Position numbers and translations under genes: made by a program. Positions 21,001-39,500 of a DNA stretch of 64,000 bases are shown piece after piece. Source of the stretch: a virus. Position 1 is the first letter of the stretch, and each line of letters opens with the position of its first letter. The stretch lies in the IMG/VR virus record IMGVR_UViG_3300009702_000785, positions 69,120 through 133,119 of that record, one strand, 5' to 3'. The notes below the pieces were generated by a model. It was not told where the DNA came from, did not search any database, and saw only the letters and a list, made by a program, of their open reading frames with translations.

Positions 21001-24000
21001 ACATCCGAATGCAATTATGATGATCAATGTATTGTCGGTGAACCTGTTGTCGGTGTTAATAGGGTACAAGACCAATGTGATGAAATATACAAAGGGTGTA
21101 GTAGTGTAGGAAAACCATCCATAGCCATTCTCAATAATGGTGTGGGACTGATTGCATATGAAACGATGGTAGATAATATTTCGACCATAAAATTACAACA
21201 GTTCCACACAAGCGTAGATTTCAAGTTATTAGCAAATAGAACTTTTGGATATGGTAGACTACAAAATAGCCTGAGATGGGAAGATGCTCCCGGTCTAACT
21301 CAGGTGTCAATAGCAACCATGTGGAGTTACGATGAGTTGCCCGTTGACATTATTCAGGGTACTGATGACCCAGCAGATTCAGATACCTGGAAAGATGTCA
21401 TCGTTTTTGCTTCTGGCCCATTGGCTGGAGCATGCTTCCCAGTATACCACTTAGACCCTGCGGGTGTTGACGATGAAAAAGTAGCATGGTATGTGAAGTT
21501 TTTAGTACAAGGTGATACTGAGTTAACTTCACCATTCTTTAGCTCAGATGACTACTATCAGTCTAGATGGTATATATATGACTACCAAACTGCCCTCAGA
21601 GATGCAGGTGGGGGCATCAACACTGATTACAAGAACTTGGTGGGTGGTGCAGGTGCAAGTGCTCAAGACTATCCATTCCCTGAATATCTATTCGGAAGTT
21701 CAAAAGATGTGGATAATATTCTTCTTGGTGACCGAATCACAGATCACATTTACAACGGTGAACGAGTCCCGATTGCTAATCCCAAGATAGACATAAGCAA
21801 AAACTATGCCCGTCCATACGAGAATTCACAATATGCTTATCTGACTTATCAGGCGCTAGAAGATGGAAAATGGAATGTATATCTGAAGCAAATAAGACTG
21901 TCAGAATATAGTAGAGATAAGCTTATTGATGCTGCTACTGGAAGTGACAATATAATACCAATAGCCAACCCGGTAGATGATCTAGTAGAGCCAGGACTTG
22001 GTTTGGCTGGAGTGGTATATCGCATTACTTGTGTCAGTGACAACTGTAGGGATATCGGTGGAAACGAGTTCTTGATGCAACGTACTGTAGTTATGGAGGT
22101 CTTACTACCTGATGGTCGTGAAGTTCTAAATCCCGACCCCGATGGCGGTAATCATGGCTCTCTATGTCCAGGCGTAAAAGCAGAAAGCTTCCCAGATGGC
22201 AAGGTGTTTGTGAAGTTTGTACAGTCTGCTGTAGGGGATAGATGTCCCGATCAGTTCCAGTTTGATGACATATTCCCAAATTGGGCTACAGGACAGGAAT
22301 ATTTCGTACCTCTCACTGCTGTTTCCGGTCAACAACTTTTTGATTACTTGCAGCGAGAGAGTGATGATGGAATATCGGTAGGACAATTTGATCCTCCGAT
22401 TGAGCAAGGCAGTACAATGATCAGTTCTAGCAGTGTTGGAGCGGATTGGTATGACGATTTTCACACAGATACTAACAACTGGTCCGTCATAGAGTCTGAA
22501 CCTTTTGACGTCCTGTCACAATTTAAGGGACTGGATATCAGTGGGCCTATACTAATTTCTACAAATGAAACAGGCCACTGTACTAACCCAAGAATCCAAG
22601 TAGATTACAATAATCACGTATTCATCGTATATGAGCACACTGATACCGGGATACAGAATATACGATTGGTTGGGACTAAAGAGGTTGAGGATGAGTTGCC
22701 TACGGGTGTAAGTCAGGTATTTAACCCAGATGACTCTCTGAATTACTTCTTTGACAAGGATGATTTCGTATACTCCGTTGATATAACATCGTCTGGTGAA
22801 GGCTCAAACCAGTTACCTGACCTGTACATCGACTTGAATAATGTACTACACTTGGCTTGGCAGTCCAACAGAGACAAGGTGTGGGAGATTTACTACGCGA
22901 ACTCTACCAATAACTTTGCGTACAAGCGAATCACTAAGCACGAGGGCAGATCACTTAAACCATCAATTACTTCCAACCCGTCTGGAAATCTGTTCATTAC
23001 TTGGCACGACAATAGATATGGCAACTACGAGATTATGATGGCGTATCACCCAGGAGTCAGGGTAATTCCGCTTTACCAGCAAGACCCATATCTGGCTTCT
23101 TTGCGTAACTTTCATGACGGATGGTCGCATACAACAGATGTTCTACCACTGAACGTAGTGAACGATAGTGATGGGCCGATATGCTACTCAAAATTTGATG
23201 TAAACTTCTATGAGGATAGAAATCTAGAACATCTGGCATTCACGGTATCCTCAAGTGATTATCCGTTTGCCTTTACTTTACCAGGGTCCGAGTCAGATGT
23301 AACCACAGCTGATCTGAGTGATATTGATACACAGTGGGTAACGACATACGACTATACATATTCTGGTCCGACTATAATAACTCAGAATTTTGTTGCAGTT
23401 AGCAACGAGATTGATACTTTCCTTGAGGACTCTACAATCAAGACCATATTGATACCAGAGTTAAATACTACAGGTGGTTGCTCGTTTGGTACTATTGAAT
23501 TAAGAGCCAGTAATTTAACGGATGACCCTGATGCAGATACTCAGTGGAGTGCTGAATATTCACTATCTGGTCGTGAAGGAGAATTGATCGATCTAGAAAC
23601 GCTCGGTGTTACGGAGACTGTTGCAGGTCGATACAAACAAATACGTTTGAAATGGGATTGTGATGTGTTTACAGACACATTCTCTGTAATTGATGGAGAA
23701 AGTGATGCTCACGTAGAAAGCGAATTAACATGGACCAACGATGCTGCTGAAGTGCGTCTTGGCCATGATTCTACAGCATCGTCTGCCACTTGGGGAGAGA
23801 TAACCACAAGTACTAATACTACTACTGCGAAGTCATCTGATCTGATAGACATTAGCGGCACGATGTATATGTCTTGGGCTGCCGGTGGAAATAGTATTAA
23901 ATTCGCCGAGTTTGATCCTTCTACGTCTTCATTCATTAACGAAGAGGTAGTCTTAGCAAGCACCCCGAATATATCCATTATTGAGATATCGATTGAGAAC

Positions 24001-27000
24001 ATATTTGGTATACCAGCCATAGCATATATTATCTATAGTACTACAAGCGGCACTTACGACGTAGCATATGCCACAAGGTTTGGTGGATCATGGAACAGCT
24101 ATACTGTGGTCACAGGTTTGCCGACGTTTGTATGGAGTCAAGTTTCACTATTTGACAACAACGACCAACCAGGAATTATTGTACACTTTGATGGTGGTGG
24201 AGCTTCCTCCATCAACTTTTATGCAAGTACAAGCCAAGGTCAATCATGGCAACCTGCTGAGTCAGTAGCAACTAACGTGGACGATACTGGGGAAATATCC
24301 GCGGTAATGATTTCTGGCGTGCCCGCTGTTACATATTTGGATACCACCACTGGTAACAGGGTATACAACACCAGAGCCGGTTCGTGGGGAGTCCCGGTTA
24401 CGATGTCGGTAACAACTCCCATATCAGCAACAAGATGTACAATAATGCAGTACAATACACATCCGTTATTCTTCTTCGGAGATAGCTCAGGGATCGGCAT
24501 GCGATGGTCCAGATACGATGGAGTGACTTGGACTGGTGACCAGATTATTGACGGTGCAGCAGAAATTGGGCATTACAAGCCAATGCTGGTTAACAGCATT
24601 CCAACTATCGCATACTATGAGGCATCAGGATCGGCCGAGTTTGACCTTAAGTATGCAGAGTTGACCAGTTTGCCTCTCAATACGTGGGACATCAACGTTA
24701 TTGACGCAAGCATTGTCGCTGATACATCTGCCCCGAATCACTGGGTTCCTAGCACCACTTGGACAGGTGAACCTCCGGGCGGAGAGACGGTAGCAGAACA
24801 TGCAGCCATCATGCCGCTTGTTGATACCAGCAACATTGTATACATCGAAGAATTTGATGTGGCAGGCTTAGAGAAGTTTGATGCATACTTCCGGTTTGAT
24901 AACTTTGACGTACCTGTAGATACCACGATCATTAGCTCTCATATGGAGATGAAGGCTAGAGTGGCAAGCGGTGCTGCCAAGTCAGTCATTCGTTTGTTAG
25001 ATGAGGTGGATACGAGAGAATTTGAAGATAACACCACTGTGCAAATACCAATAGCCGCAGCAGCAGACGATGCAGAATTAGAGATACCCGACCTATGGAG
25101 CATAGGGAGTAATACCATTAAGTTTGGTAGCGATGGCGGATCGGACTACTACGCATACTTGAGATTCCTACTAAATATACCTGTGAATTCTCGGGTCATT
25201 GAGTCCTACGTGGAGTTCACACCTGCGGCAACTGATACTGGTGACGCCCATGCAACAATAGCACTCGTAGACGGAAGTTCGGAATTCGCAGATACGCATA
25301 TTTATTCTGTTGCTATAGATAGTCAAAGCGGTGACGCTGATTATCGTATCAGTGATGAGCGATGGGAAAATAGCGCCGATACTATACGATTTGGCGAATC
25401 AGCAGGTGAGACATATGAGGCATACCTACGTTTCTACATAACCGGAATCCCGACTTATGCGTTGATCTCGTCTGCTTCCATCACGTTACAATCGGAATCC
25501 ACTGTTGTTGGAGATTCTGATGTCGCAATCAAGCTTTTGGATTATGGCAACATAGAGTCGTTCCCAGATACGACTGTGTTACAGTTCCAGATAGCAGCGG
25601 GTGCTGATGATGCTGATTTTAATACAGAGATTGAGGAATGGCGTAACGACCTAAGTTCTGTGCGATTCGGCGTGGATATCGACGACTATAACGCTTACAT
25701 GCGTTTCAATGTTGATATCGATCCAGATTTGAAGTATATTGCAGCACGACTACGAATTACACCTGCTGCTGATAGTTCGGGTACATCCTCAACGATGATC
25801 AAGTTATTGAACCGCAATGATGATTGGCCAAGTGCCGACCATACCGAATTCCCAACAATGCTGACTACTGATATATATGCTTCATCCAGTGATGATGATG
25901 CTATGGCAGAGGTTATCGATAACCTACCGAAGCGATGGGAAAATAGTGAGGGATATATTTGGTGGGGAACTGAGCACGCATCGGATGGAGACCACGTTTG
26001 GGATGGTTATGTCCGGTTTGACACCTTTACGGCTGGCATTGCAGATCAAGGTCTAGGTAGGCCAAAGATCAATCGTGCTCATATAGAGATGCAATCTGAA
26101 GGACCAACTTCTACCAGTACCACCATTATCCACGGCATTAACCGCAATGTAGAAAGAAGTGGTGGAGACGGATTCCCGCATTACACAAGCATAACTGCCG
26201 AAATACCTAGCGCTGCAAGTGACGCATTTTTAGCTGATGATGCGGATTGGACTATCAACGAAGGAACGGTACAGTTTGGTAATGATGGTTCTAACACATA
26301 TGACGCTATACTCAGGTTTATCCCAGAAGACAAAGATTCTTCTGTACGCCTAGAAAGATACGACTACATATCAGAATCGTATCTCAGCGTTATTGCTGTA
26401 AATAATACTTCAATTGGAGCAAATGCCCAAATCCAGTTGATTAATGATTGTTCAGTGGATGAGTTTGTAGAGTCTGATAGCGGAACGTTCATGATGGACA
26501 ACGAAACATATGTTTCGGATGGATTGAGTCCTGATGCCTACGTGCAAAATGATACGACGTGGTTTAACAAAGCAAACTTTGTTAGATTTGGTACGGATGG
26601 TGCAGATTACTATGATGGATACTTGAGGATCAGAGTTTACGGCATACCGGAAGGTTCGACTATCGTATCAGCCACATTATTCTCATACCCTTACGCTGCG
26701 GAATTGAATGCATCTGATATAGCAATCACTTTAATAGATGAAAATTCAGCCGCAGCATTTAAGGGTGCCGAGTCCAAGTCTACTTCTGCGAATACTACGG
26801 GAGATTTAGGTATAGCGGATATTGCGTATACCTATCAGGCTCAGTCAACATTAGACCCCAGCCTGGATTATGACGAGCCAGACGAAGAGGTTCTGGCTTC
26901 TGGATTCGCCATATATGGTGACTATAATGTTTGGACTGAATACGTTGTAGGTGATGGTTCAGCAGGGGGGGAAGACCCCGTATATCCATTCGAGACTCCA

Positions 27001-30000
27001 ACTACCTACACTGATACAAGATCATATGGTGCCGTCAGTGGTGGAACCGTACACCGCATCGGAGATTTAACTTGGACTACGGAAGGTCTGTACGTTGCGT
27101 GGGTAGATAACGACACCACCCCAGATGCTCCCAATTACAAGTTGATGGTTAGTAAGCTGGTTAAGAATGGAAGTGATTGGGAGTGGAAAGATTCTACAGA
27201 GGTTGATAGTGATGTATATGGCGATGTCACAATGCTCACTGTCGATAACGACCCATGCATAAGTTATCTACGTGACAACTCGGGGACCATGCAGTTATGC
27301 TTCGCACGCAAGTTTGGCGCTGGTGGAAGTTGGCCCACACACTCCACGGTTACAGTGGTTGCTGGTGCTTCTGGTTCCACAATCGGGTCACCACACTGCA
27401 TAGAGGACGATTCGTTACAGCCTAAGATTGCATATGTTATTGGGACTACCGGTGTGGATTCCACCAACAGCATCTTCGTAGCTTCATCGACGGATGGCGG
27501 AGCCACTTTCGTCAATATTAATACCGGGATAACAACTTATGGTGGTACCCAGGATGTCAAGCTCGACTGCTTGAGAATTACCCCAGTGAACAGTGAAATC
27601 CATATGGCTTATTCGAGGTACAATACAACATCAACTGAGATTGAGGTCTACTTCGCATACTACGATGGTTCTTGGAATGATGTTGGTCGAGTGTACGATG
27701 GTGCTACTGCAAACTTACAAAACAAGGTTGGTAATGGTTTTGATTTAATCAGTTACGACGATTTACAGACAAGTACAACACCTGTGCCCGTTTTATTTAT
27801 GCATTATTCTGTTGCAATTAATGATCGAATACTTTGGGCCAGATCAACTGATCGTGGAACTACTTGGTCTGGTGAAAGAGTTGTAACCGGAGTCACACTT
27901 GACCCTATTAATATCAGGGCAGTTGTTACTTATGAGCAAGATGCTGTATGGACAAACGTTGTTTTTGAGGAAAACACAAGTACATGGGATGTGCAAGTAC
28001 GTCGCCAATCAGACAGTCTGAATAATCTGCCCGCATCAGGGACATGGGTAGAAGAAACCGCTTTGAGCAATATCGGCACCGATGAAGCCGAGACTATCGC
28101 TATTGCTAACGTTAGGGATAAGCCTGCAATATTGTTCTTGCAGCCTGAATCATCTCCTACGTATGGCTGGGATAGTGCTCCTGTGGTTTACTGGGAGCAA
28201 GACTTCATTTATAGTGCTCTTGCGCGACATTACATTGAAGGCAGAAACTCAGCTAACGACTATGAAGCACCTTACTCTGATGCTATTATAACAGAAGCTA
28301 AGTTTACGGTCACACCACAGCTACAGGATGGAGCAGACAATGACAACGATGCCAATATTAAGATGTTTAATATATCGTCAATATCCTCTGCATGGTCTCA
28401 GTATGAGATGTTTGCCTGGTCTCTACCAGCATTATTTGAAACACCCATAACCGAGTTTACTCCTGACCCCGGTGACTGGACAGCAGTTACAGTAGATATA
28501 ACTGGTGCAGAGGAAACGGTACAAAATTATATTAACAACAGATCAGGAATGAGCAGTAGATACATTGGGTTCAAATGGGAGACTGCTGATCTAGACGATT
28601 TGAGAAGTGCATTTAATGCTCCTGATTTCTACTATGCATACACGTATCCGCAGCGGGATTTGGATTTATCAGCGCCAGAGGTTATATGGTCCATCCAGGC
28701 TGGCGAATGGACCGGCTCCAATCCTATTGGAGTTGATATAACTGATCTAGTAGACTACTGGGTTAACAACAAGGTTTCTAGCGGGTATATGGGCATCATA
28801 CTTCGAGATGCAAATTCAAGTGTTGACTCACTGAAAGAGCTAGTATCAGTTGAAGGGAATAGTACCAAGCGAGCATACATTGACGTGGTATGGAATGAAC
28901 TACCTAATATTGATTATAGATCAACAACCGTTAATTGGAGCCCGAATATCTGGACCGATTCAGATATAGTAACATCGCCTGATATACGACTGTTGATACA
29001 GGATTATGTTGACCGATGTGACCCAGGGGTATCGAGCGCAGCAATGGGATTCGGAATACAGCACGTTTCTGGATCGGTGCTGAAGACGTTTGCTGCTTAC
29101 GAAGGTTCGGGATATGGTGAGCCGTCGCAATTGTATATCGAGTATTCACCGTACATTAACGTAACTCCATACTTGCCGGATAAGCAAGTCAGTTGGTCTA
29201 CTGGAACTTGGGCTGATTTGGAGACTGTGACCACTCCTGATCTGCGGGGTATTGTGAAGCCGTGGTTTGATAGCTACTTTTCATTCTACGGGACTAAGTA
29301 TATTGGATTCAGGATATCGACTGCGACTGATATTCTTAAATCAGTCAAGTCGTCCGAGGGCGGAACTGACATCAAGCTACATATCGAGTACTCACCGGAA
29401 GGTACTAGGACGACGGATGGCAGTGGCATAAGCTGGGTTGATGCAACTGATTGGGATACTGTTGGCAGTGGTGACGCAGTGGAAGTCACTTCACCTGACT
29501 TGTTAACTCTAATTGATACGGTATTCACATCAGATTCCTGGCGATATCACTGGGACCAGTATGGATACGGAACGTCTGGCATAGGGTATTATCTGGACGA
29601 AGAGCATACTACAGTAAACCCAGATTTTACTGGGCAATATATTGGTTTTGTTATAGAAGAAGTCAGCAGCAGTGTTTTGAGGGAGTTTATCTCGAAAGAC
29701 ACACCTTTTGCTGCTGCCATATTAGAGATAGACAAAACTGAGGATGGACCGCGTAACCGATATATGATTGACTCTGCCACAGAGCATCCTGGTATACCGT
29801 GGACGGCCTCATCATGGGATGGTATTGAGAAAACAGCAGACATCACAGCCTTAGTAACCGAGTATATAGATTTACCGAGCTACTCGATGTCTGGATCATA
29901 TATGGGACTGGTGATCGAAAATCATACAGTCGGTAATCCATTGAAGTCATTCTTCGCTTACGACGCAGCGGGATATAGTGGAGCACAACTGGATATCGCA

Positions 30001-31860
30001 TGGACGACTGGGGGAGCACTACCGCCTAGTGGGTCGAGTGTTGACTGGTCTAATATTCAGGATTGGTCTGCATCTGTAGATCAGCAATCTGTTGACATTT
30101 CAACTATTGTGGAAGAATTCTTGGCATCCAGTGGATACTCTGGCTCTGGTTATATAGGGTTAGCAATTGAAGACAATAGTAGTAGTGATGTCAGAGAGTT
30201 TTATGCATATGAGTCTGGCTCTGATCCCGCTCAGTTGATTATTCATTATACTGGGCCAACCCGAAGCACTGTGAGTGGAATAGCTTGGGATAATACGTCA
30301 ACTCCTGCTCTTGATGCATGGGTGATAGATGAAGAAGTATCCACTCCAGAGTTGGCTACACTGGTGCAGTCATATGTGAATATGGATGGCTATAATTCCA
30401 CAGCATCATATGCTATTGGATTCGTGATCGAGGATAATGCAAGCACAAATCTAAAGAGGATAGTATCATACGAAACTGCCGCAGGATTAGATGCAGCTGA
30501 ATTGCTTGTATCTTGGCGTAACAACTTCGATTTCACAATAGAACTAAACTCCTTAGCAACAGCGAGACTATGTTTGGGTTCGGGCGAGTCATCTACGGGG
30601 TCATTGGATTTGACTCCTAATATCCGGCTAGATTCTCAAGGCAATAAGACTGTGGAAAGCCCACTACCTATTGATTATCATCCTAACTGGACTTACTTTA
30701 CTGCAATTGAAGCAACCACAGACAACAACGATAAGGTAATAATGGACCAAAAGAAGAGCATCTCTTGTGAATCTTGTAGTGCTCATTCGGTCGAAACCAG
30801 TTGGGACTTCGAGACATGTTCACTAACGGTAGAGATAAGTAATACTAACGTACTACCAATGAACGTAAATATTGCTGTACTCCTATATGCTGATGAAGAA
30901 CGAAATAGTCTGGCGGGCCAGTTGTCTACTTTTGCATGGGGTGATATAGACAGATTCACTATGGACGATTTACAACCAGCCAGTGATTTTCAGGAGAATG
31001 GAGAGTTTGTTATTGCGCCTGGAGGTGTACTCCGAATGCTGGCATGGCCCACGTTAGGCCCTAACAGTGGACTTGTATGCGGACTTAAATACTTCTACGA
31101 AATCAACATTAACAGTGATGGCGGAACGGTGCCTGATACGACCAATTCCACAGGTGAGTGGGTTTGTTCTTGTGGGTCCGAAAGGTGGTCGGGCAGGTTT
31201 GAAGAGCAGCAACAAGACTTAACAACGATGACACGTTGGAGAAGTAGTGGTGAGGGATTAGCTGATATTCGGTTGACTGAAACTAAGTCCGACAACTTCA
31301 GCCCTCATATCCAGATACGTCCTGATTTTGCTGGATTAGTAATGTATGAAAGCAACCGTGACGACAGTTGGAATTTATATGTATCTTCCTTTGCCTATCA
31401 ACCATCGCATAAGATGTATGCTTCTTCTGCTGAGTCTATAATCTCTCCGTGGTCAGAGCCAATTCACAAATCTGATATTACTGTGAAGAACTCAGATGGT
31501 GATCACATCGCAGGTTTGGGAGGAGAATTTAAGTTTGACCAGTACGGTAACCTATTTATGGTAGCATCAATGCCGTTTAATACATTCTTAATGGATGGAT
31601 CGCAGGAAGATTGTAACAGATTCTCGCCAGATACGATGCAGTATATACTTGTCCATCGGTGTGGGCTGGACGACTTCAGTTTTGAAGAAGTGAAGCAGGA
31701 TGACGTAGAGCGAGTTTGCGAGCAAGAGGACATTACCAAGGAAATTTACTCGATCAGTAGTCCAACATTCAATAAACTCATCCGAATGATACGAGTTCGA
31801 GAAGAGTTTGTGAAATACCACGTTAGCCGAGTGAAAAACTCATTACCAGTGGTGAATTAG
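18046..31860 (+). CDS. Giant virion adhesin/fiber protein A: dead NTase-like domain, Cys-rich region, vWA, propellers, nested DNRLRE-like stack (continues through the TAG to 32808)
   Basis: About 4,600 open codons; ATG 18046 overlaps the upstream stop. vWA MIDAS motif VIDDTGSM at about 19657-20230, repeated AY(L/F/M)RF and D(I/L)..L(V/I)...YIG motifs, and extensive collinear similarity to 33574-46155. Confidence 0.85.
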   Translation: MPKLSKITINMLHTIDHAARASGFIPYLYGDLARAIQLDQYPADGRLVEVVLSYEHSNSVDDFYQSLSKKITINREIEHFNDLYSFVSSPYVVECQLRQNFNVFDNDIAVFNVDALFIEMGHNADPAPETNELLCFKQPDEWDITHVIGFAAKLGEYPDRIINPDQRAALDEVQLLKMRHPFGVNIAEKLIDLLLTANPGNAFLFLSSFTDGKDWLATQFIELASRYSIALNEDFDLREIISSKKAELLNVYSEYFKVKREDSEWNRQHSILTYLKLLFDSPSLTIETPYIDRVSVFAAPETFTVPVENATVTTFADDRWACCQEGNICTEVDKATCTTLRGIWHEGLLCDAVNCSVDIPGDCEYPPCPPCDPAACGDPENGGEACCCCSSVDIVSATALQCHKQIIISCNRDGTGPGPDADGIEQVFNSNCSQCTEVCEMIINSSGPDGCINPPNPALPKVCCGELPTPWFLDPPTPCSCDCARYDGDGVCSLHCMSCSGKHAYCRSIVTPGGQDNDCAYDFTIEPGPECCGSPAGFDVIFVIDDTGSMGSEIKDVKNGIIGFVQNGINRGILSRLALVTFKDDVWVYGFNDDGTYNTNSQVGRGGDEKPRPGPVDFTTDATEFEALVGSLTASGGGDGPENIYDGSMQGLHYNMPGAFGNIMITVCDNSARSDTTREQLIDFANSENYKIFFVGPATGAEQIAIQTGGLYYDLTDADWDQIFLDASSAAGIFPSSCACVDFTPLPIIRAVGDPSDPDNYFPQCACDDVSQCLPNTPGELPSECYEFPIPKCVSPDTAEDCDGICDIPFGVNVCGTTITITPTETNMTCCGTLDGFGCTCPGGGGECPDYQCCGAECDELCDWLAIPFPTPIHSSVGEAQQFVWNNCLAKATGSCGDDCLLFPTGECEDDGVTPIEYFKEKSGLFDEVATIYANCGGEGGACCIGINCTTVSSESECDGVWMGYGTPCTPNPCGGPGAVEFDCITSECNYDDQCIVGEPVVGVNRVQDQCDEIYKGCSSVGKPSIAILNNGVGLIAYETMVDNISTIKLQQFHTSVDFKLLANRTFGYGRLQNSLRWEDAPGLTQVSIATMWSYDELPVDIIQGTDDPADSDTWKDVIVFASGPLAGACFPVYHLDPAGVDDEKVAWYVKFLVQGDTELTSPFFSSDDYYQSRWYIYDYQTALRDAGGGINTDYKNLVGGAGASAQDYPFPEYLFGSSKDVDNILLGDRITDHIYNGERVPIANPKIDISKNYARPYENSQYAYLTYQALEDGKWNVYLKQIRLSEYSRDKLIDAATGSDNIIPIANPVDDLVEPGLGLAGVVYRITCVSDNCRDIGGNEFLMQRTVVMEVLLPDGREVLNPDPDGGNHGSLCPGVKAESFPDGKVFVKFVQSAVGDRCPDQFQFDDIFPNWATGQEYFVPLTAVSGQQLFDYLQRESDDGISVGQFDPPIEQGSTMISSSSVGADWYDDFHTDTNNWSVIESEPFDVLSQFKGLDISGPILISTNETGHCTNPRIQVDYNNHVFIVYEHTDTGIQNIRLVGTKEVEDELPTGVSQVFNPDDSLNYFFDKDDFVYSVDITSSGEGSNQLPDLYIDLNNVLHLAWQSNRDKVWEIYYANSTNNFAYKRITKHEGRSLKPSITSNPSGNLFITWHDNRYGNYEIMMAYHPGVRVIPLYQQDPYLASLRNFHDGWSHTTDVLPLNVVNDSDGPICYSKFDVNFYEDRNLEHLAFTVSSSDYPFAFTLPGSESDVTTADLSDIDTQWVTTYDYTYSGPTIITQNFVAVSNEIDTFLEDSTIKTILIPELNTTGGCSFGTIELRASNLTDDPDADTQWSAEYSLSGREGELIDLETLGVTETVAGRYKQIRLKWDCDVFTDTFSVIDGESDAHVESELTWTNDAAEVRLGHDSTASSATWGEITTSTNTTTAKSSDLIDISGTMYMSWAAGGNSIKFAEFDPSTSSFINEEVVLASTPNISIIEISIENIFGIPAIAYIIYSTTSGTYDVAYATRFGGSWNSYTVVTGLPTFVWSQVSLFDNNDQPGIIVHFDGGGASSINFYASTSQGQSWQPAESVATNVDDTGEISAVMISGVPAVTYLDTTTGNRVYNTRAGSWGVPVTMSVTTPISATRCTIMQYNTHPLFFFGDSSGIGMRWSRYDGVTWTGDQIIDGAAEIGHYKPMLVNSIPTIAYYEASGSAEFDLKYAELTSLPLNTWDINVIDASIVADTSAPNHWVPSTTWTGEPPGGETVAEHAAIMPLVDTSNIVYIEEFDVAGLEKFDAYFRFDNFDVPVDTTIISSHMEMKARVASGAAKSVIRLLDEVDTREFEDNTTVQIPIAAAADDAELEIPDLWSIGSNTIKFGSDGGSDYYAYLRFLLNIPVNSRVIESYVEFTPAATDTGDAHATIALVDGSSEFADTHIYSVAIDSQSGDADYRISDERWENSADTIRFGESAGETYEAYLRFYITGIPTYALISSASITLQSESTVVGDSDVAIKLLDYGNIESFPDTTVLQFQIAAGADDADFNTEIEEWRNDLSSVRFGVDIDDYNAYMRFNVDIDPDLKYIAARLRITPAADSSGTSSTMIKLLNRNDDWPSADHTEFPTMLTTDIYASSSDDDAMAEVIDNLPKRWENSEGYIWWGTEHASDGDHVWDGYVRFDTFTAGIADQGLGRPKINRAHIEMQSEGPTSTSTTIIHGINRNVERSGGDGFPHYTSITAEIPSAASDAFLADDADWTINEGTVQFGNDGSNTYDAILRFIPEDKDSSVRLERYDYISESYLSVIAVNNTSIGANAQIQLINDCSVDEFVESDSGTFMMDNETYVSDGLSPDAYVQNDTTWFNKANFVRFGTDGADYYDGYLRIRVYGIPEGSTIVSATLFSYPYAAELNASDIAITLIDENSAAAFKGAESKSTSANTTGDLGIADIAYTYQAQSTLDPSLDYDEPDEEVLASGFAIYGDYNVWTEYVVGDGSAGGEDPVYPFETPTTYTDTRSYGAVSGGTVHRIGDLTWTTEGLYVAWVDNDTTPDAPNYKLMVSKLVKNGSDWEWKDSTEVDSDVYGDVTMLTVDNDPCISYLRDNSGTMQLCFARKFGAGGSWPTHSTVTVVAGASGSTIGSPHCIEDDSLQPKIAYVIGTTGVDSTNSIFVASSTDGGATFVNINTGITTYGGTQDVKLDCLRITPVNSEIHMAYSRYNTTSTEIEVYFAYYDGSWNDVGRVYDGATANLQNKVGNGFDLISYDDLQTSTTPVPVLFMHYSVAINDRILWARSTDRGTTWSGERVVTGVTLDPINIRAVVTYEQDAVWTNVVFEENTSTWDVQVRRQSDSLNNLPASGTWVEETALSNIGTDEAETIAIANVRDKPAILFLQPESSPTYGWDSAPVVYWEQDFIYSALARHYIEGRNSANDYEAPYSDAIITEAKFTVTPQLQDGADNDNDANIKMFNISSISSAWSQYEMFAWSLPALFETPITEFTPDPGDWTAVTVDITGAEETVQNYINNRSGMSSRYIGFKWETADLDDLRSAFNAPDFYYAYTYPQRDLDLSAPEVIWSIQAGEWTGSNPIGVDITDLVDYWVNNKVSSGYMGIILRDANSSVDSLKELVSVEGNSTKRAYIDVVWNELPNIDYRSTTVNWSPNIWTDSDIVTSPDIRLLIQDYVDRCDPGVSSAAMGFGIQHVSGSVLKTFAAYEGSGYGEPSQLYIEYSPYINVTPYLPDKQVSWSTGTWADLETVTTPDLRGIVKPWFDSYFSFYGTKYIGFRISTATDILKSVKSSEGGTDIKLHIEYSPEGTRTTDGSGISWVDATDWDTVGSGDAVEVTSPDLLTLIDTVFTSDSWRYHWDQYGYGTSGIGYYLDEEHTTVNPDFTGQYIGFVIEEVSSSVLREFISKDTPFAAAILEIDKTEDGPRNRYMIDSATEHPGIPWTASSWDGIEKTADITALVTEYIDLPSYSMSGSYMGLVIENHTVGNPLKSFFAYDAAGYSGAQLDIAWTTGGALPPSGSSVDWSNIQDWSASVDQQSVDISTIVEEFLASSGYSGSGYIGLAIEDNSSSDVREFYAYESGSDPAQLIIHYTGPTRSTVSGIAWDNTSTPALDAWVIDEEVSTPELATLVQSYVNMDGYNSTASYAIGFVIEDNASTNLKRIVSYETAAGLDAAELLVSWRNNFDFTIELNSLATARLCLGSGESSTGSLDLTPNIRLDSQGNKTVESPLPIDYHPNWTYFTAIEATTDNNDKVIMDQKKSISCESCSAHSVETSWDFETCSLTVEISNTNVLPMNVNIAVLLYADEERNSLAGQLSTFAWGDIDRFTMDDLQPASDFQENGEFVIAPGGVLRMLAWPTLGPNSGLVCGLKYFYEININSDGGTVPDTTNSTGEWVCSCGSERWSGRFEEQQQDLTTMTRWRSSGEGLADIRLTETKSDNFSPHIQIRPDFAGLVMYESNRDDSWNLYVSSFAYQPSHKMYASSAESIISPWSEPIHKSDITVKNSDGDHIAGLGGEFKFDQYGNLFMVASMPFNTFLMDGSQEDCNRFSPDTMQYILVHRCGLDDFSFEEVKQDDVERVCEQEDITKEIYSISSPTFNKLIRMIRVREEFVKYHVSRVKNSLPVVN
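23671..30528 (+). repeat. Nested array of 8 DNRLRE/CBM96-like beta-sandwich domains (7 N-halves, 1 complete core, 7 C-halves)
   Basis: Protein-level repeats. N-halves follow the pattern DA...W......(R/K)FG...AY(L/F/M)RF...IP....I.S; C-halves follow W...(SPD/VD)(I/L)..L(V/I).....Y(I/M)G(F/L).I.....AYE....QL.I.(Y/W). Confidence 0.8.
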
Positions 31861-32808
31861 TGTAGTATTGGATTTGATATTATCGGCACGCCTGAAAGTG
31901 TGGCGATTCGTATTCGTAATGGCAGTTCTGGAGATTGGAGCGATTGGCTTCCATTCGATCCTGATATTGGGTCGGAAGCAATCAAACTAGACCACGATTT
32001 GACCAGAGGCAGTGGTATAAAAACCGTGCAATTCCAGGTGGCTACACCAGCCGGTTTAGCTCCTACGGCGACGATGGAGGTCGTAGCAGACTTCAAACCG
32101 ATTGTACACCAAGTAAACTTTTACAAACCTCTAGGGGATTGTTCCACAGGCACTCCTTGTCCACCTGATCCAATTGAAACATCTCATTTGGAAGAATCGG
32201 GTATTTGGGTCGAAGACAACAAGCTCAACGTTATGGATAACATACCGATTGCATCAGTTAGAGCACCAGAGACAGAAACCTCAGAAGATAACGTGAAAGA
32301 GTTGGTAGTTCGAGAATCGGATTACATATTCATCGAAATAATCCCTGAAGAAAGCTATTTCGACCAGTTTACACAAGAGGAGATTGAAGAAAAGAATATT
32401 ACTCCAACCTTTGACTTCATCCATCAGGGTGGTCAAGATGGGTTTAACCTGCCAACGATATTCAATCTCGCTTCTCGATCCTTCCGAGGATGGATATCGA
32501 TCAACAAGGAAGATGAAGGGGCTTTTAGGGACGGTCTGGCATACATCGTGGTTCACTTTAAGAACGACTGCTCTGATCCAACGTCGGTTTCTGCGGGATC
32601 GGTCACTGAGAAGTTAGCAGCCTACACGAAAGATGAGTTTAATGCGTTGGCTCCAGGTAATGCGACTTTTAATACTGAGCAAACCGATGTATGGGCTAGC
32701 GACCGTGACAATGCTGGCAAGATAGAAAGCAAGATAGTAATTAGACCTAGTGAAGACCCTTACTTTATATTTGGTGACCCTAACTACAGGTTACGAGAGA
32801 ATGAATAA
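31861..32808 (+). CDS. C-terminal segment of giant protein A beyond the in-frame TAG
   Basis: Same frame. VVN*CSIGFDIIGTPESVAIR...LTRGSGIK...IRPSEDPYFIFGDPNY aligns with paralog B VVNTCEIGIEVIGTPEVIAVR...LTKGSGEK...VRPTDDPFLVFGDPDY. Confidence 0.85.
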   Translation, partial: CSIGFDIIGTPESVAIRIRNGSSGDWSDWLPFDPDIGSEAIKLDHDLTRGSGIKTVQFQVATPAGLAPTATMEVVADFKPIVHQVNFYKPLGDCSTGTPCPPDPIETSHLEESGIWVEDNKLNVMDNIPIASVRAPETETSEDNVKELVVRESDYIFIEIIPEESYFDQFTQEEIEEKNITPTFDFIHQGGQDGFNLPTIFNLASRSFRGWISINKEDEGAFRDGLAYIVVHFKNDCSDPTSVSAGSVTEKLAAYTKDEFNALAPGNATFNTEQTDVWASDRDNAGKIESKIVIRPSEDPYFIFGDPNYRLRENE

Positions 32809-33577
32809 AGCGACCTTAATGAAAGTTGATGATTCATGGCAGATAAAGGTTAATCTGTCTATCAAGTCTGCAAGTGAGATTAGTTTCTATGACAATATGG
32901 AGCCTATAGAAATATTGTCTGCTAGTGACGGGTTTATACAGGATGATATTTTGATTATGTCCAAGGGCGTAAGGTATTTAGAGGTCGTTTTGGATCATGT
33001 TCATAATATCAGGAATATCGAGTGTATAATTAATGGACGACACAATGGAGAGCAAGAGGTTGTAATGCTGAGTGTCCCATCTGTGGATTCGATGTCACAC
33101 ACCGTGCCTGAAATAAAGACTGTAAAGAGTATTGAATCGCCTGATGGGGTTAAAATATTCTATAAACCTGAGTGGCGAGTAAATCTGTCAGTGGTGGGGG
33201 ATTTGCGGGTTGCCGTAGTAGATAGTGGGGTAGATATTTTTGCAGCAGTTGGGGATGCATCCAAGATATCCAGTGCTTCTGATTTCGTTTTTCCTGTAAA
33301 CAAATATTGCAATCACATAATTGTTCCAAAGGAAATCATTTGGATGATGTACAAAGAATATAATGGGCACAAGTTGGGGTGCTATGAATTAGTAAAACTG
33401 GCTCATCGCCCCAATATCCTGTATAAAGTGCCCATATCCAATAACCTGGATTTTGCTGATCTTCCACAGAAAATACCAGTACAACTGAGATTCTTCAGAT
33501 GTCCAACAGGAACATCTTTTGATCCCTCTCATTGGTTTATTAACGAGAATTCTAATCTACCGGTATATACAAGATGA
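32801..33577 (+). CDS. Hypothetical protein, partner of giant protein B (paralog of 16875-18053)
   Basis: ATG 32801 overlaps the stop at 32806-32808, there is an ATGA overlap with the next gene, and motifs are shared with 16875-18053. Confidence 0.7.
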   Translation: MNKATLMKVDDSWQIKVNLSIKSASEISFYDNMEPIEILSASDGFIQDDILIMSKGVRYLEVVLDHVHNIRNIECIINGRHNGEQEVVMLSVPSVDSMSHTVPEIKTVKSIESPDGVKIFYKPEWRVNLSVVGDLRVAVVDSGVDIFAAVGDASKISSASDFVFPVNKYCNHIIVPKEIIWMMYKEYNGHKLGCYELVKLAHRPNILYKVPISNNLDFADLPQKIPVQLRFFRCPTGTSFDPSHWFINENSNLPVYTR

Positions 33578-36500
33578 ACGTTTGCTTAGGGCCATATCAA
33601 ATTGAAACACCTCATTTTAAGAATGAGGATGGTAGCAATATGTTCATCAATCCATTTGAGACCCGGCAAGTTGCAGTCACCACCTCACTAGGTATCAATA
33701 AACCACCCACAACTGACGCAGAGCTTCTTTATGAGGAATTTGGCGAAAAGTCTGTGACCAGATGGTATGAATGTCCATCTCAAAAAGGTCGAGTATATAC
33801 AATCATTCCTACTGCATGCGAAGTACTCATTACATCATTCGAGAATGGAATTGATGGTACGTCATTTGGCGTGAGTAAATTCTGCTTTGGTAAAGCCTAT
33901 ATCACTGACAAAGAGCCTCTAGATTCTGGTGATACTTGCACCACATCGTTTGAATTTGATGGACATCTCTTCAAAGTTGTGGGTACTTCAGCCCTAAACT
34001 CTGGTGAATACGATTGTGGTGAATGTGAGCCGGATATCTTCAGTGTTGAGAATTTTGATGCAGAGACGGGGACATTTGGATCAGAGGTTAAGGCATTTGC
34101 TTCTGTAGGTTCAGGAGCTTGTTGCTGTAGTCTGGGTTCTACAAAGATATGTATTTCACCATCATCTAGTGAGTTGTGCACATCATATTGCACAAGTACA
34201 TATGGTTCGATAGGACAGTTCTTTGTAGGGCAATCTTGTCCTGATTCGTCCACTTGTCCGGGGGCATCCACTGGAGCTTGTTGTAGACAACTCGTGTCCG
34301 CTCCATACACATATGCATGTCAGGATGGTACAACTGCCGACTTATGTGTGCCAGGGATTTCAATGACAGCAACATTCTACTTGGGGTCAGACTGTTCCAC
34401 TATACAAAGCGGTGGGCTATGCGGTGGGAGTGATGATACAAATCCTCCTACTCCTAATCCAATGACTTGGGATACAGAGCCTTTCGGCTTATCTACGGAT
34501 TCCATATCGATGTCTGCTTCACTGGCGACAGACCCAGAAGGAGACTCTGTAACTTACTACTTCAAGAACGAAACAATATCTGATGGTTCGCATGATAGCA
34601 ACTGGACAACAAACCAGTCCTGGTCTGACCAACTGCTTCCATCAGGAACATATATTTACAAAGTCAAAGCAAGAGATCAGCATAACAACGAAACGGGGTG
34701 GTCCGAGAGCCGATCATCTGCAACTATACCTATTGTAGATACGATTGCCCCAGAACCTAACCCATCAACTTGGCTACAATCTCCTTTGGCAATTGGCCCG
34801 AATGAAGTATATATGTCTGCTACTGTTGCAAGTGACACGTCGCCCGTGGAATATAACTTTGAAAATACATCCGGCGGCGGCTCTAACAGTGGGTGGCAGA
34901 CATCTAATGAATATTTTGACACATCGGTTTCTGGTGGGTCGGTTTATGCTTATCACGTTAAAGCCAGGGATGCGTCGGGCAATGTTACAGTTGCTTCTTT
35001 AACTAAGCAGGTAACTACCCCGGATGAGCCGATTGTAGATACAGCCCCGCCGACTCCCAACCCTGCTCAATGGATGCTGGAACCAATTGCTACTTCTCCA
35101 ACATCTATACGGATGCAGGCTAAAGTGGCATCGGACCCTAGCGGTGTGGAATACTATTTCGAGAGTGTCAGTGGAGGACATGATAGTGGTTGGCGCAGCA
35201 GCAGTGTCTATGAGGATACGAGATTAGAAACCGGTCAAACATACTCATACCGCGCAAAAACCAGAGATGGGGCATCACCTCCTAACGAGGGTGGATGGAC
35301 TAATATTAAGGAGGCTATAGCAGAAGAAGTAGAGGACAACGATCCGCCATCTCCTGATCCTCCCGGCTGGTCCAGTATGCCATACGCAACAGGCAGGACT
35401 TCAATTCGGATGATCGCAGAGCAATGTTTTGACTCTAACGGTGTACAATACAGATTTGATTGTACAACAGATGGAACTAAAAGCAGTGGTTGGCAGACCA
35501 GTCGGTCTTTCTCTGCTTCAGGTTTGACTGCGGCTACAGAGTACACATTCAAAGTCCAAGCCAGAGACATGTCTGACAATTATAACGAGACCGGCTTCTC
35601 AGCCGAGTCCCGAGCTAGCACGTTTGGTGGTACCGGAACTACTGGGGGTGGCATTATTGGTGCCCCCTTACTTGAAGAATGTGAAAGTCAGGATGATCCG
35701 CAAATAGTAGTTCGTCCGTCAGGCGACTCAATAACAGCATACACATACAAAGATGAGGATGGTGCAAGTCGGGTCAGGCTATATCAAGGTCCGACTTCAC
35801 AATCAAATTTGATAATCTACTATCGAGAGTTAAGTAGAGGCTGTCTGTTAAATCAAAATGAAGACGAGTTCGCCAGCGTGAATTTTGAAATCTATGATGA
35901 TTTAGTCGTACCACCTTCAGTAATTAACGCAGGTGTTGGATTTTTGTCTGGGCCATTGTCGGGCATGGTATTTCATATTAATTCCATTGAGCGTGGTTTC
36001 CAACCTAATGGTAAACCGAAACAAACTCTGAATGTTTCAGCCGCGTCAAGTGAATTGAGTTTCGAGGACTCAAATAATGTTTGTGACGTAGAATGGTATC
36101 TGTTTGATGAACTTCTTACTCCATTCGCAGCTAACGAACCCACTGTTTTTTCTGCATCTGTGCCTACCGAGTTTAGACAGGCCGAGACCCCCGCAATCAG
36201 CCTGATGGAATTCCCTTGTACTGATCTGGGTGGTACAGAAGTAGATGAAGTTACCTATCATAGATTTGTAGGCAACCATATTGAGCCGGACATTGATAAA
36301 GTTCTTACAGAGATAAGAATGCAGTTCCAGGTTGATGAACCTGCATTAGCTTTTTGGTATGTTTGGGAGCATACCGGAAGTTCATACTATCATATGCCCG
36401 TTATGCAGAAGGTTACAAGTATAACTGACACCACAATGACCACCCATTCTTCGGGTGAGATTAAGCAGTCAATGACGGCGAACAAATTTTACATTATTGG

Positions 36501-39500
36501 TGTTGTGGTGAAACATCCTAAAGTGGTATTTCGCAGAGAGACTGCAACGACCTCATACCATTCGGGCACTATGCCTGGTTGGGTGCACAAGAGCCAGATC
36601 GCTTATGTTGCTATGCCGCCATTCTATTCTCCTAGCCCAAATGGTCAGTATTGGAATCCACTTGGAACAGACACAGCTAGATACTGGCAGCAACTATGTT
36701 GGGATGATACGTATATTGGCGTAGATGTCCCAGGCCCACCCGATGGATCGTTTGAAACTGGTACTTTTGTGTTGGGTGATGTCGAATCAGCATCAAAGGA
36801 AGATAATGATTTCTTCTTCTACGGTAATGATTATGCGGTCAGAGCGCAATATTATACTGGTGGATCAACCAGTGAGAGTAGATACGTCAAAAAATACGAA
36901 CAATATATCAAAGCCAATGTTGGTCAAAAGTTATACTTTGCAATTTACTCTACGTCTCCCGAAGTGGCAACTGGCAATTACGTTGCTCCCATTTGGACAA
37001 AAACCGTCATAGCAGATTCGGATGAAGCCAAATGGTACTCATCAGGTGATATTAATTTAGAGATGGAGTTAAATGAAGACTACCTTTTAGGTGTTGCTGC
37101 AAGAGACCATGATACAGTGGGATGGAACCAGCAAGAGTTCTATTACACCGGAATGCCCAGCAGCCAGCAGCGCACATTCTTTGGATATAAGTACTACGAT
37201 GTAAAAGCGAAGATGATTGCAATGCCTAACCTTATCTTCACAAAATCATTCGGAGATAATAAGCGAATTTTCTTACAAAAAGTGACCATAGGCAATGACG
37301 ATAGCTCATCGTTGGAGACCCCCGTTTTTGGTGAAGATAGAGAGTGGATAGGAACTGGAAGCAAAGACTCTTATGATGGTGGGGCTGCAAGGCAAGGTCA
37401 TGGCGAGATGTTCTATCATTCCAACTCGAATACGCGGTTCTTCCCTCCTGAGCCTGGTCTTATCAAAAACTTGAGGGCTTGGGTGAAAGTCCCTGCCGGT
37501 TATGTTAATCCAGAAATATTCTTCTACATAATGCGTAAGCGTTCAGGAAATGCCTTTAGAAATGTATGGGAATCAGGTCCACATACAATATCAATACCTT
37601 TAGGAGACGGATACGAAGGTTGGGTTTACGCCTCTGATACAGACATGGATTTCACAGTTGAGTGGGCAAGCGGAGTCTATTGGCTTGCAACTATTGCTTG
37701 GGGCAACATTCCTATAGAGATAGGAAAAACCAACTCTGATACTTTCTTGTACTCCCCTTATTGTCAATTGGGTCGTGGATATACCAGCTCAGCCGAGCCG
37801 CCATATGGAGCAGATATAGATACTTACTTCTCCTATAACACTCAGCATACTATGGTGGAGATAGAGTTTGCTAACTCAGATATACCCGCATCTAATGTTG
37901 CAGCCTGTTGCTTCCCGTCATCAGCTTGCCAGAATCTAACCCAAGCGCAGTGTGAGGGTGTTGGTGCAGTATGGCATGACGGAGAGGACTGTGGTTCTGG
38001 ATTCTCCTGTGTTGTTGTTCCAACAGGCGCTTGTTGTCACGCTCCAACTCGTGGATCGGTTTATCAGAATCCTGTTTGTGAGGTTCTGAGTGAAGAGCAG
38101 TGTCACGCTGCGGGTGCATTTGGAATTGGACTAACTAACTCTACATATAAAGGAGATGGAACTACTTGCGGCCCATCAAGTTGTTTACTAGGTGCGTGCT
38201 GTCTTGACGCATCTACATGTTCTAATCTGTCTTATGCCGATTGTGAGAACCAGGAAGGTATTTGGAGGTGGCCTGGGAGTCAATGCGACCAACTCATTCT
38301 GTCTGATACAGAATGTGAATCCTATTTAACAGGGGCATGTTGCGTCCAAACATCTATTGAGCCTCACGGCTGTATAGATGTTGACCAAGCAACATGTGAT
38401 TCATTCGGGACTTACAAAGTTAATTGGGCTGGTCTAGGAACTAGATGTTCACAAATAGATTGCGCTATTGCAGGATTGGGAGCCTGCTGCTATGGAAACG
38501 CACAATGCGAGTTATTGTCCGAAATTGATTGCACTACATTACACGAAGATGACGGAGTGTGGCAAGGGGAGTTCACCACTTGTACTGAAGGATTATGCCC
38601 TAACAGGGGAATTTGCTGCCTCATAGATAATTCCTGCATATTTACCACCCAATTAGATTGCGAGAATCAGGGCGGAGTTTATGTGCAGGATGGTGGTTCG
38701 TGTGTAGGATTCTCCTGTACAGAAGAAAGAGGAGCCTGCTGCTTCCCGAATGGATATTGTGAAGAAAACTTTACCCAGGATGATTGCGAGACCAACAGTG
38801 GAACTTATCTTGGTGACAACACTACATGCGAAGGCGCTGAGTGTGAAGTCAAAACAGATGTTGGAGCATGCTGCCTTATAGATGGTACTTGTTTTGTAGG
38901 AACCAGGACAGAATGCGAAGCCTCTCTCATAGAGAGTGAATATCAGGGAGATGGGACATTTTGCAGCGGGTCGTCTGCCGTCGAATGTCCAGTCATCAGC
39001 CTAACGAGCGAAGAAGCCTTGGTATTGCCAAATCACACTTACAAAGGCGATGTTGTACCTGCTTCTAAACCATCTGTAGCAGTGGCTAAAAATCATTTGA
39101 TGATTGATGGATCACAGCATCAGTTTGTATCTTACCAAGCATTTGAAGATAACCAGTGGAATGTTTATTTGCGTCAAGTACGAACAGTACTAAACGATGC
39201 CGGGGCATCTGACCCGAATTACCAGTCACCATTCAATATACTAGAGAGACCGACATTCACTTTATCTGAACTTGAAGGTTCAGATTTTACACAAGTTAAG
39301 TATACCGTAGTGGACAATACGATTACTGAACCTCCATCGAACAGCCTATGTGCCATGTTTAAGGTGAGTTTACCAGACGGCAGAGCCATATTCAACTGTG
39401 ATGATAGTGCGTCTGGTGAGTGGTCTACAACATGTACTTATGGTGGTTCAACATCGTTCCCGCAAACGGAGGTATTTGTAGAGGCTCTGTACGACATTAA

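Follow-up and report, generated by a model that had tools for sequence, protein, structure and literature searches.

A single in-frame amber codon (TAG) interrupts gene A, a giant virion gene of a huge uncultured phage, located on the 64,000-nt stretch of viral DNA analysed here (the window; positions 69,120 to 133,119 of IMG/VR record IMGVR_UViG_3300009702_000785). This stop is private among the known relatives, occupies the position of an ancestral Gln codon and is followed by a reading frame free of decay. Most likely it represents a recent one-off nonsense mutation or a base error and not a programmed recoding signal. Tentatively, we favour a private Gln-to-amber nonsense change outside any recoding or programmed-readthrough system. 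At present, the finding concerns annotation: the entry for gene A should note its interruption by one amber codon, and the downstream 302-aa database "gene" P0002 is the detached C-terminal module of gene A and not a gene of its own.

The upstream ORF including its stop extends from a GTG start at 18025 to 31860 and encodes 4,611 aa, while the database gene call for this part (P0162) starts at 18046 and comprises 4,604 aa (Table 1). As stated in an earlier sequence-only reading, the TAG is in frame within a gene of approximately 4,900 codons, with 4,611 codons on its 5' side and 315 open codons on its 3' side, up to a TAA at 32806-32808. Read through the TAG, gene A comprises 4,927 codons (4,920 from the called start), among which the TAG is the only stop. 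The codons at 31852-31869 are GTG AAT TAG TGT AGT ATT, corresponding to ...LPVVN*CSIGFDIIGTPESVAIR... in translation, and the base immediately following the TAG is a T. The same reading had noted the lack of an RBS or ATG at the junction, and this was borne out: the first in-frame GTG (31900) follows after 13 codons and has no suitably spaced Shine-Dalgarno-like motif, and 71 codons separate the TAG from the first ATG. An in-frame ATT at 31867 is preceded by a GGTGA motif (31852-31856) at a distance of approximately 10 nt. Neither a promoter nor a terminator was found near the TAG, and the RNA fold of 31840-31990 is not significant (z -1.27), since 22 of 200 shuffled sequences fold equally well.

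Table 1. Features of gene A and its paralog in the window.
Feature	Position	Strand	Evidence or remark
Gene A upstream of the stop	18025..31857	+	ORF listing, database gene call
In-frame amber TAG	31858..31860	+	column with Gln in all but one of the 8 nearest relatives
C-terminal module, 315 open codons plus TAA	31861..32808	+	paralog B, 163 family hits, structure model
First in-frame canonical start (GTG) past the TAG	31900..31902	+	13 codons after the stop
Paralog B (4,193 aa, no interruption)	33574..46155	+	ACA (Thr) at 45304-45306 aligned to the TAG

Gene A occupies 11% of the 133-kb contig, carries a VWA_4 domain near residues 618-702 and has orthologues of 4,950, 5,358, and 5,662 aa. Its paralog B is situated 1.7 kb downstream, ends in the same type of C-terminal module and contains no internal stop. 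The gapless alignment of both proteins over the TAG site, with ACA opposite the TAG, and the homology up to both C-termini were reproduced (E 7e-37, 29% identity, up to a common ...EDP[YF]..FGDP.Y tail). According to a structure model, the module consists of two beta-sandwiches of Ig-like type together with a conserved tail, ...RP.EDPYF.FGDPNYR, and the TAG is located at a domain boundary, in a short linker ahead of the first beta-strand. This strand comprises model residues 102-109 and GTG 31900 corresponds to model residue 114, so that initiation at this GTG would, in the model, drop the first and most conserved strand. A specific function could not be assigned to the module from its fold, which gave generic Ig-like matches only.

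A phmmer search of a library of 1.84 billion protein representatives resulted in 163 family hits. Approximately 30 giant proteins (1,200-5,662 aa) match residues 1-715 of the query unbroken across position 400, which corresponds to the TAG. The TAG is not conserved: in all 139 family proteins aligned over this column a sense residue is present, and among the eight nearest relatives, which are 77 to 39% identical, seven carry Gln. In case of the nearest one, L005 (77%), which is the only relative with a known codon at the site, this codon is CAA; all others were compared as proteins. Gln also occurs in P0003 (68%), P0161 (61%, 4,950 aa), P0007, P0004, P0009, and P0163, these six being 68, 61, 48, 45, 39, and 39% identical at the protein level, and P0006 (54%) carries Glu. 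P0004, a protein of 330 aa, begins 25 codons ahead of the site and may be either a fragment from a contig edge or a further break close to this boundary. Except for the window's own ORF, no protein of 173-552 aa starting at the TAG point was found among 5.8 billion, and the site does not coincide with the start or end of any other database protein. Thus, a stop kept at the same site in relatives, a hallmark of programmed readthrough, was not observed. Instead, the stop is private to one lineage, the relatives' Gln codon would, as the presumed CAG, be one step away, and the downstream piece lacks an independent start signal, as is typical of a nonsense mutation. No match was obtained in INPHARED phages by tblastn and blastn, and nothing was found in IMG/VR, where four protein queries as well as one DNA pattern were used, or in GTDB genome contigs. 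The metagenome scan yielded a single relative, L005, and no second copy of the TAG-bearing genome was found in viral or metagenome collections.

Wholesale reassignment of TAG (code 15) had been rejected before, and rightly so. TAG terminates 26 of the 102 ORFs, about a quarter, four of them in the same structural (late) block; these terminators include window stops ending at 2153, 2960, 7143, and 59198. For two of them (2958 and 7141), their earlier assignment as true stops fits with the presence of an ATG, accompanied by an AAAGG or AAGGG motif, within 4-5 codons after the stop. Back-up stops are not enriched behind TAG, the median distance to the next stop being 27 codons versus 6 for TAA, and some TAG terminators of the late block have 151 to 1,246 open in-frame codons behind them. 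Gene A contains 69 CAA and 67 CAG codons, i.e., 136 Gln codons versus one TAG, and in-frame TAG is absent from gene B, in agreement with the claim that the codon does not otherwise occur in frame in these genes. Among all same-frame ORF pairs of the contig separated by one stop, the present one is the only real gene junction at which no ATG follows within 0-8 codons. Neither in-frame TAG in many genes nor avoidance of TAG as terminator, two hallmarks of code 15, was observed, and wholesale or late-gene recoding of TAG was rejected on the basis of stop usage, of the Gln codon counts and of the contig-wide scan for interrupted genes. A further in-frame TAG, likewise not accompanied by a Shine-Dalgarno motif, occurs at window positions 2151-2153.

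The record consists of one linear contig of 133 kb from a metagenome and covers approximately 30% of the genome according to CheckV, from which a complete genome of about 440 kb would be expected. In this part of the genome, neither a CUA tRNA (8 tRNAs predicted by ARAGORN) nor release-factor genes (PF00472, PF03462) were found; a Pth2 module and an amber-gated Met-Ser/Thr-TAG leader module are likewise absent from the contig. A ninth, Rfam-predicted tRNA-like gene (contig 20495-20597, minus strand) was rejected as amber suppressor. Its 27-nt anticodon loop contains CUA, but no 5' prefix and 3' suffix can be joined to a 7-nt loop with U33 that yields CUA, and its class II body is consistent with Leu(UAA) carrying an insert of 20 nt. 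A putative suppressor-gated leader "MT*KGPP" (contig 27008, minus strand) was rejected too, as it is located within a gene of 317 aa but not in its frame. A ribosome hop or frameshift over the TAG was discarded as well, since both flanks of the TAG align in frame and without gaps and no matching AAT landing codon is present nearby.

In the 315 codons past the TAG, all family-invariant and near-invariant residues are retained. The number of amino-acid changes unique to the window (21) is close to that unique to L005 (23), and with a second outgroup both counts are 14. The absence of decay implies that the change is either recent or that the region is still translated, and with intact and unaccelerated downstream codons we infer a recent event. 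An ancestral Gln codon (CAA/CAG) would have been converted to TAG, the last step being a C-to-T transition from a presumed CAG intermediate. Gene A is a large mutational target, given its share of the contig and the fact that a stop results from 4.4% of the substitutions possible in it. As written, the product would be a protein of 4,611 aa without the two Ig-like domains and the C-terminal tail common to all family members. Such an allele may persist due to paralog B, which carries the same C-terminal module; alternatively, basal leakiness of UAG may provide a little full-length protein, or the assembled genome may be a defective or minor variant.

Of the two alternatives originally proposed, nonsense mutation or sequencing error is thus favoured, whereas gating by suppression or readthrough found no support, as the relatives carry a sense codon, which is part of what had been named beforehand as refuting it. 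Several observations nevertheless count against a nonsense change. Gln, the aligned residue, is also the very amino acid that code-15 phages and supE-type suppressors insert at TAG, and for this reason a mutated Gln codon and a TAG read as Gln are not separable. The undecayed downstream codons are equally expected under continued translation, a dominant nonsense allele removing the most conserved module should be costly, a suppressor tRNA could lie in the genome part beyond the contig, and the in-frame TAG at 2151-2153 may likewise count against it. Reading of the TAG as Gln with partial efficiency by a tRNA(CUA), encoded by the host or in the rest of the phage genome, would yield full-length gene A product, with the TAG acting either as a tolerated, near-neutral codon or as a gate of late infection; this could be a first step to code-15-like recoding. 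We consider this unlikely. It has to be taken into account because the contig represents only the smaller part of the genome, and it is in good agreement with Gln as ancestral residue, with the absence of decay or rate acceleration downstream and with the established use of suppressor tRNAs by phages that read TAG as Gln (PMC9523058, PMC10879173, PMC10607447). However, neither the 8 ARAGORN tRNAs nor the tRNA-like gene provide a CUA anticodon, release-factor and Pth2 genes as well as the leader module are missing from the contig, one gene alone is interrupted, and no known relative carries the TAG. Furthermore, efficient suppression would result in gross fusion proteins, due to the frequent use of TAG as terminator, in some cases with long open frames behind it.

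Similarly doubtful is an origin of the TAG from an error of assembly or sequencing, or from a minority allele promoted into the consensus, the true dominant sequence being CAG in an intact gene A of approximately 4,920 codons. The evidence for privacy (Gln in the relatives, no split relatives) applies here to the same extent as to a private change, the region past the TAG is perfectly healthy, the readthrough length of 4,927 codons, or 4,920 if counted from the called start, agrees with that of the 61% identical orthologue (4,950 aa), and the record is one linear metagenomic contig. On the other hand, single-base substitution errors are rare in an assembled consensus, and no other obviously broken gene was observed across the 133 kb. 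A functional split gene, with termination at the TAG and re-initiation at ATT 31867 or GTG 31900, would provide a separate module that joins the 4,611-aa body. The GGTGA motif ahead of the ATT and the intact downstream frame would suit this arrangement, as would translational coupling, which is common in the contig, where the stops and starts of many genes overlap or abut. Yet it is very unlikely, considering that no relative is split here, ATT starts are rare, a start at the GTG loses the first strand, and ATG is lacking for 71 codons. Least probable of all, and hardly credible, is programmed, context-driven readthrough without a dedicated suppressor, by which truncated and full-length protein would be made in a fixed proportion. 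The position of the stop exactly on a domain boundary and the conserved, folded module that forms the extension point in this direction, but the stop is missing from all relatives and no significant structure is present 3' of it. In E. coli, a T immediately after the stop is not known to make it leaky.

TAG-to-Gln (genetic code 15) phages are known among crAss-like phages, Lak phages, and phAss-1 (PMC9523058, PMC10607447, PMC10879173, PMC11210395). As in these, a large phage is concerned, the affected gene is a late structural one, and its TAG takes the place of the relatives' Gln. Code-15 phages, in contrast, carry in-frame TAG in many ORFs together with suppressor tRNAs; for phAss-1, 41 such ORFs are reported (PMC10607447). 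In the present contig one TAG affects one gene that contains 136 CAA/CAG codons, and the visible 30% of the genome is devoid of a CUA tRNA. That a standard-code huge phage, equipped with an amber-suppressor tRNA in the rest of its genome, begins to tolerate or use TAG at Gln positions of late genes, this site and possibly also 2151-2153 being the very first step to TAG-to-Gln recoding, appears rather improbable. If true, i.e., with a fixed TAG and a phage suppressor tRNA, incipient stop-codon recoding would be documented in a standard-code megaphage, a stage of which we know no description.

Programmed stop-codon readthrough is exemplified by the minor coat protein A1 of Q-beta and by the retroviral gag-pol of MuLV. 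Similar to these cases, one leaky stop would give rise to a short and a C-terminally extended virion protein. Their stops are conserved in relatives, whereas the present one is private, and in MuLV a stimulatory pseudoknot is situated 3' of the stop, where no structure signal was detected in gene A. The classical amber mutants (CAG to TAG) in structural genes of phages, e.g., the am mutants of T4 and lambda, share with the present case one in-frame TAG that replaces Gln and truncates a virion protein in an otherwise unrecoded genome, and an allele that would be viable only with a suppressor, upon complementation or where the protein can do without the truncated part. Differences to the classical mutants are the natural occurrence in an uncultured, metagenome-assembled huge phage and the presence of a paralog with the same C-terminal module 1.7 kb downstream.

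The contig of 133,119 bp (43% G+C), whose final 64 kb form the window, is single, and its IMG/VR virus record is linear. Since CheckV rates it as approximately 30% complete, it is regarded as one part of a phage genome of very large size. Its phage character is supported by upstream PHROG matches to a minor tail protein, a connector, and homing endonucleases. On its plus strand, the window carries a series of giant genes whose products measure 4,611, 4,193, 2,760, and >1,547 aa; the first two are the virion gene A and its paralog gene B. Gene A contains a single in-frame TAG with an open frame on either side, gene B contains none, and both genes align without gaps across the site, their regions downstream of it matching as far as the C-termini (E 7e-37); the observation of the sequence-only reading is thereby fully confirmed. 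Including the TAG, gene A comprises 4,927 codons (4,920 from the database start), consistent with the 4,950 aa of its orthologue P0161. The lack of an ATG at the junction was likewise confirmed, since in-frame starts follow the TAG as GTG at 13 codons and as ATG not before 71 codons.

Positions of the features discussed (window coordinates unless marked as contig)
Feature	Position	Strand	Remarks
ORF of gene A up to the TAG	18025-31860		4,611 codons
TAG in gene A	31858-31860 (contig 100977)	+	in frame with the 4,611-codon ORF
In-frame GTG	31900		residue 114 of the structural model
TAA of gene A	32806-32808		preceded by 315 open codons
Gene B	33574-46155		uninterrupted
ACA (Thr) codon of gene B	45304-45306		aligned with the TAG
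C-terminal module (final ~330 residues in either gene, A and B)	31561-32808 and 45010-46155		family-defining
Second TAG	2151-2153		followed by 268 open in-frame codons
Ninth tRNA-like gene	contig 20495-20597 (contig DNA L002:1495-1597), outside the window	-	Rfam tRNA, 46 bits; missed by default ARAGORN

A query of 715 residues across the site, with the TAG entered as Q (position 400), was compared with 1.84 billion cluster representatives and gave 163 matching proteins (E of 0.001 or lower); approximately 30 giants of 1,200-5,662 aa cover it completely in one stretch ending at their own C-termini. Conservation of the TAG in related genomes, proposed as a check, was not found: in a local alignment around the site, all 139 proteins placed across the column carry a sense residue. 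Its surroundings are strongly conserved (P-V-V-x-x-C-x-[IV]-x-[FL]-x-[IV]-[IV]-G-x-P), whereas the residue in the column varies, with Asp in 40 proteins, Lys in 38, Thr in 13, Val in 11, Gln in 10, and further residues in the rest. Most of the nearest relatives carry Gln, namely L005 (metagenome contig Ga0075122_10003113, 77% identity), P0003 (68%), P0161 (61%), and P0007, P0004, P0009, and P0163 (~48-39%), the exception being P0006 (54%) with Glu. The codon was read from DNA in L005 only, where it is CAA, and the remaining relatives were compared as proteins. Among 5.8 billion proteins, no other free-standing C-terminal ORF of 173-552 aa starts at the TAG point; this search returned the 302-aa call of the window itself and three fragments with other starts. 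Judged from the sense residues in 139 relatives, Gln in most of the nearest ones, and the lack of a similarly split ORF, the TAG is derived and private to this genome, and its ancestral codon is Gln. P0004 (330 aa, on a 7,923-bp JGI contig), a ~45-49% relative of the module, is called as free-standing. Its Met is aligned to that in LIRMIRVREEF, which precedes the TAG by 25 codons; P0004 could be truncated by the edge of its contig, or this domain boundary could have been broken nearby a second time, independently.

The C-terminal module occurs in over 160 cluster representatives, for the most part giants (1,000-5,662 aa) encoded by contigs of 100-570 kb, and no Pfam or PHROG family was found for it. 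For the surroundings of the site (415 residues), an AlphaFold2 model built from a 13-sequence alignment (mean pLDDT 65, ~80 over the folded parts) predicts two Ig-like beta-sandwich domains and, after them, a tail (RP.EDPYF.FGDPNYR) that is highly conserved though poorly modelled. A Foldseek search returned generic Ig-like tandem domains only. The TAG corresponds to model residue 100, two residues ahead of strand 1 (102-109) of the first sandwich. Since the module is shared while the remainder of the proteins varies, it presumably represents the end that serves function or assembly throughout the family, and a truncated gene A product would probably be impaired.

When both strands of the contig were scanned from stop to stop, the TAG of gene A was the lone outlier, all other real same-frame gene junctions having an ATG 0-8 codons past the stop. 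The 102 non-overlapping ORFs are terminated by TAA (44), TGA (32), and TAG (26), the latter being unusually common; four of the TAG-ended ORFs are located in the structural block of gene A. Several TAG terminators precede open in-frame runs (151, 268, 310, and 1,246 codons) and back-up stops are not enriched (median 27 codons to the next stop versus 6 after TAA), so that efficient suppression would yield gross fusion proteins. The second TAG listed in the table is situated between a 1,055-aa protein with a Gly/Pro/Ala-rich tail and a 260-aa Ala-rich protein, with an ATG 8 codons on but no Shine-Dalgarno motif proper, the Shine-Dalgarno-like one there being the weakest of the block; homologues that might show a fusion there were not present in the collections searched.

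Suppressor tRNAs and release-factor homologs, proposed as a further check, were sought in the 133,119-bp contig, and with ~70% of the genome unseen the negative results are weakened: none of the eight tRNAs reported by default ARAGORN (five Leu, Cys, Asp, and Tyr) has a CUA anticodon, and RF-1 domain, PCRF domain, and Pth2 genes as well as short Met-Ser/Thr-TAG leaders were not found. A single look-alike of such a leader was rejected, being out of frame within a 317-aa gene. The ninth tRNA-like gene, 3 kb from the main array, is of class II in its body, as seen from the long variable arm, and has A73; its anticodon loop extends to 27 nt and encloses a small 5-bp hairpin. ARAGORN with introns allowed forced it into an Arg(UCG) model, and removal of internal segments to canonical 7-nt loops by inspection gave UAA, UCA, or UCG, never CUA; a role as amber suppressor is not evident. 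The best fit would be Leu(UAA), which the main array already includes, carrying an insert of 20 nt in or directly beside position 34/35, where cyanobacterial tRNA-Leu has its group I intron. The gene may be a pseudo-tRNA, a mini-intron case, or a decoy. Of all nine genes of tRNA or tRNA-like type, five are Leu isoacceptors.

On the most economical view, a Gln codon of gene A would have changed to amber privately in this lineage, be it real and recent or an artefact. We tentatively prefer a real and recent change, at somewhat below even chance. Gene A, like giant genes in general, is a large mutational target, as it occupies 11% of the contig and a stop would arise from 4.4% of the single-base changes possible in it. 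In the 315 codons after the TAG, 21 changes are unique to the window versus 23 to L005 with P0003 as outgroup, and 14 versus 14 with P0004, and the copy in the window retains every one of the 15 invariant and 19 near-invariant positions in the 13-sequence family alignment. Relaxed constraint is not apparent from these comparisons: either translation of the region continues, or the stop arose very lately or does not exist. The last option, an assembly or minor-allele artefact, is rather unlikely.

Still-translated codons would follow from reading of the TAG as Gln by amber suppression, an explanation to which we give a similarly small chance: it also predicts the Gln ancestry and the lack of decay, and the contig lacks most of the genome, but positive evidence for it was not obtained, and efficient suppression is at odds with the frequency of TAG as a terminator. 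Re-initiation after the TAG is quite improbable and has little support, as a start at the GTG would remove strand 1, in which the module is conserved most. Near the TAG, no site resembling a promoter or terminator is conspicuous. Context-driven programmed readthrough is hardly to be expected, the RNA fold of 151 nt from position 31840 being no better than that of shuffles (z -1.27). Of the two readings offered previously, nonsense mutation or error is favoured by the private TAG and Gln in relatives, whereas programmed readthrough is little supported.

The evidence speaks against TAG recoding in this phage. In agreement with the earlier exclusion of a wholesale code-15 reassignment, TAG regularly serves as terminator, and gene A encodes Gln by 69 CAA and 67 CAG codons versus its one TAG. 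Those defining features of the known TAG-to-Gln recoded phages (PMC9523058, PMC10607447, PMC10879173, PMC11210395) that were amenable to testing are absent in this genome.
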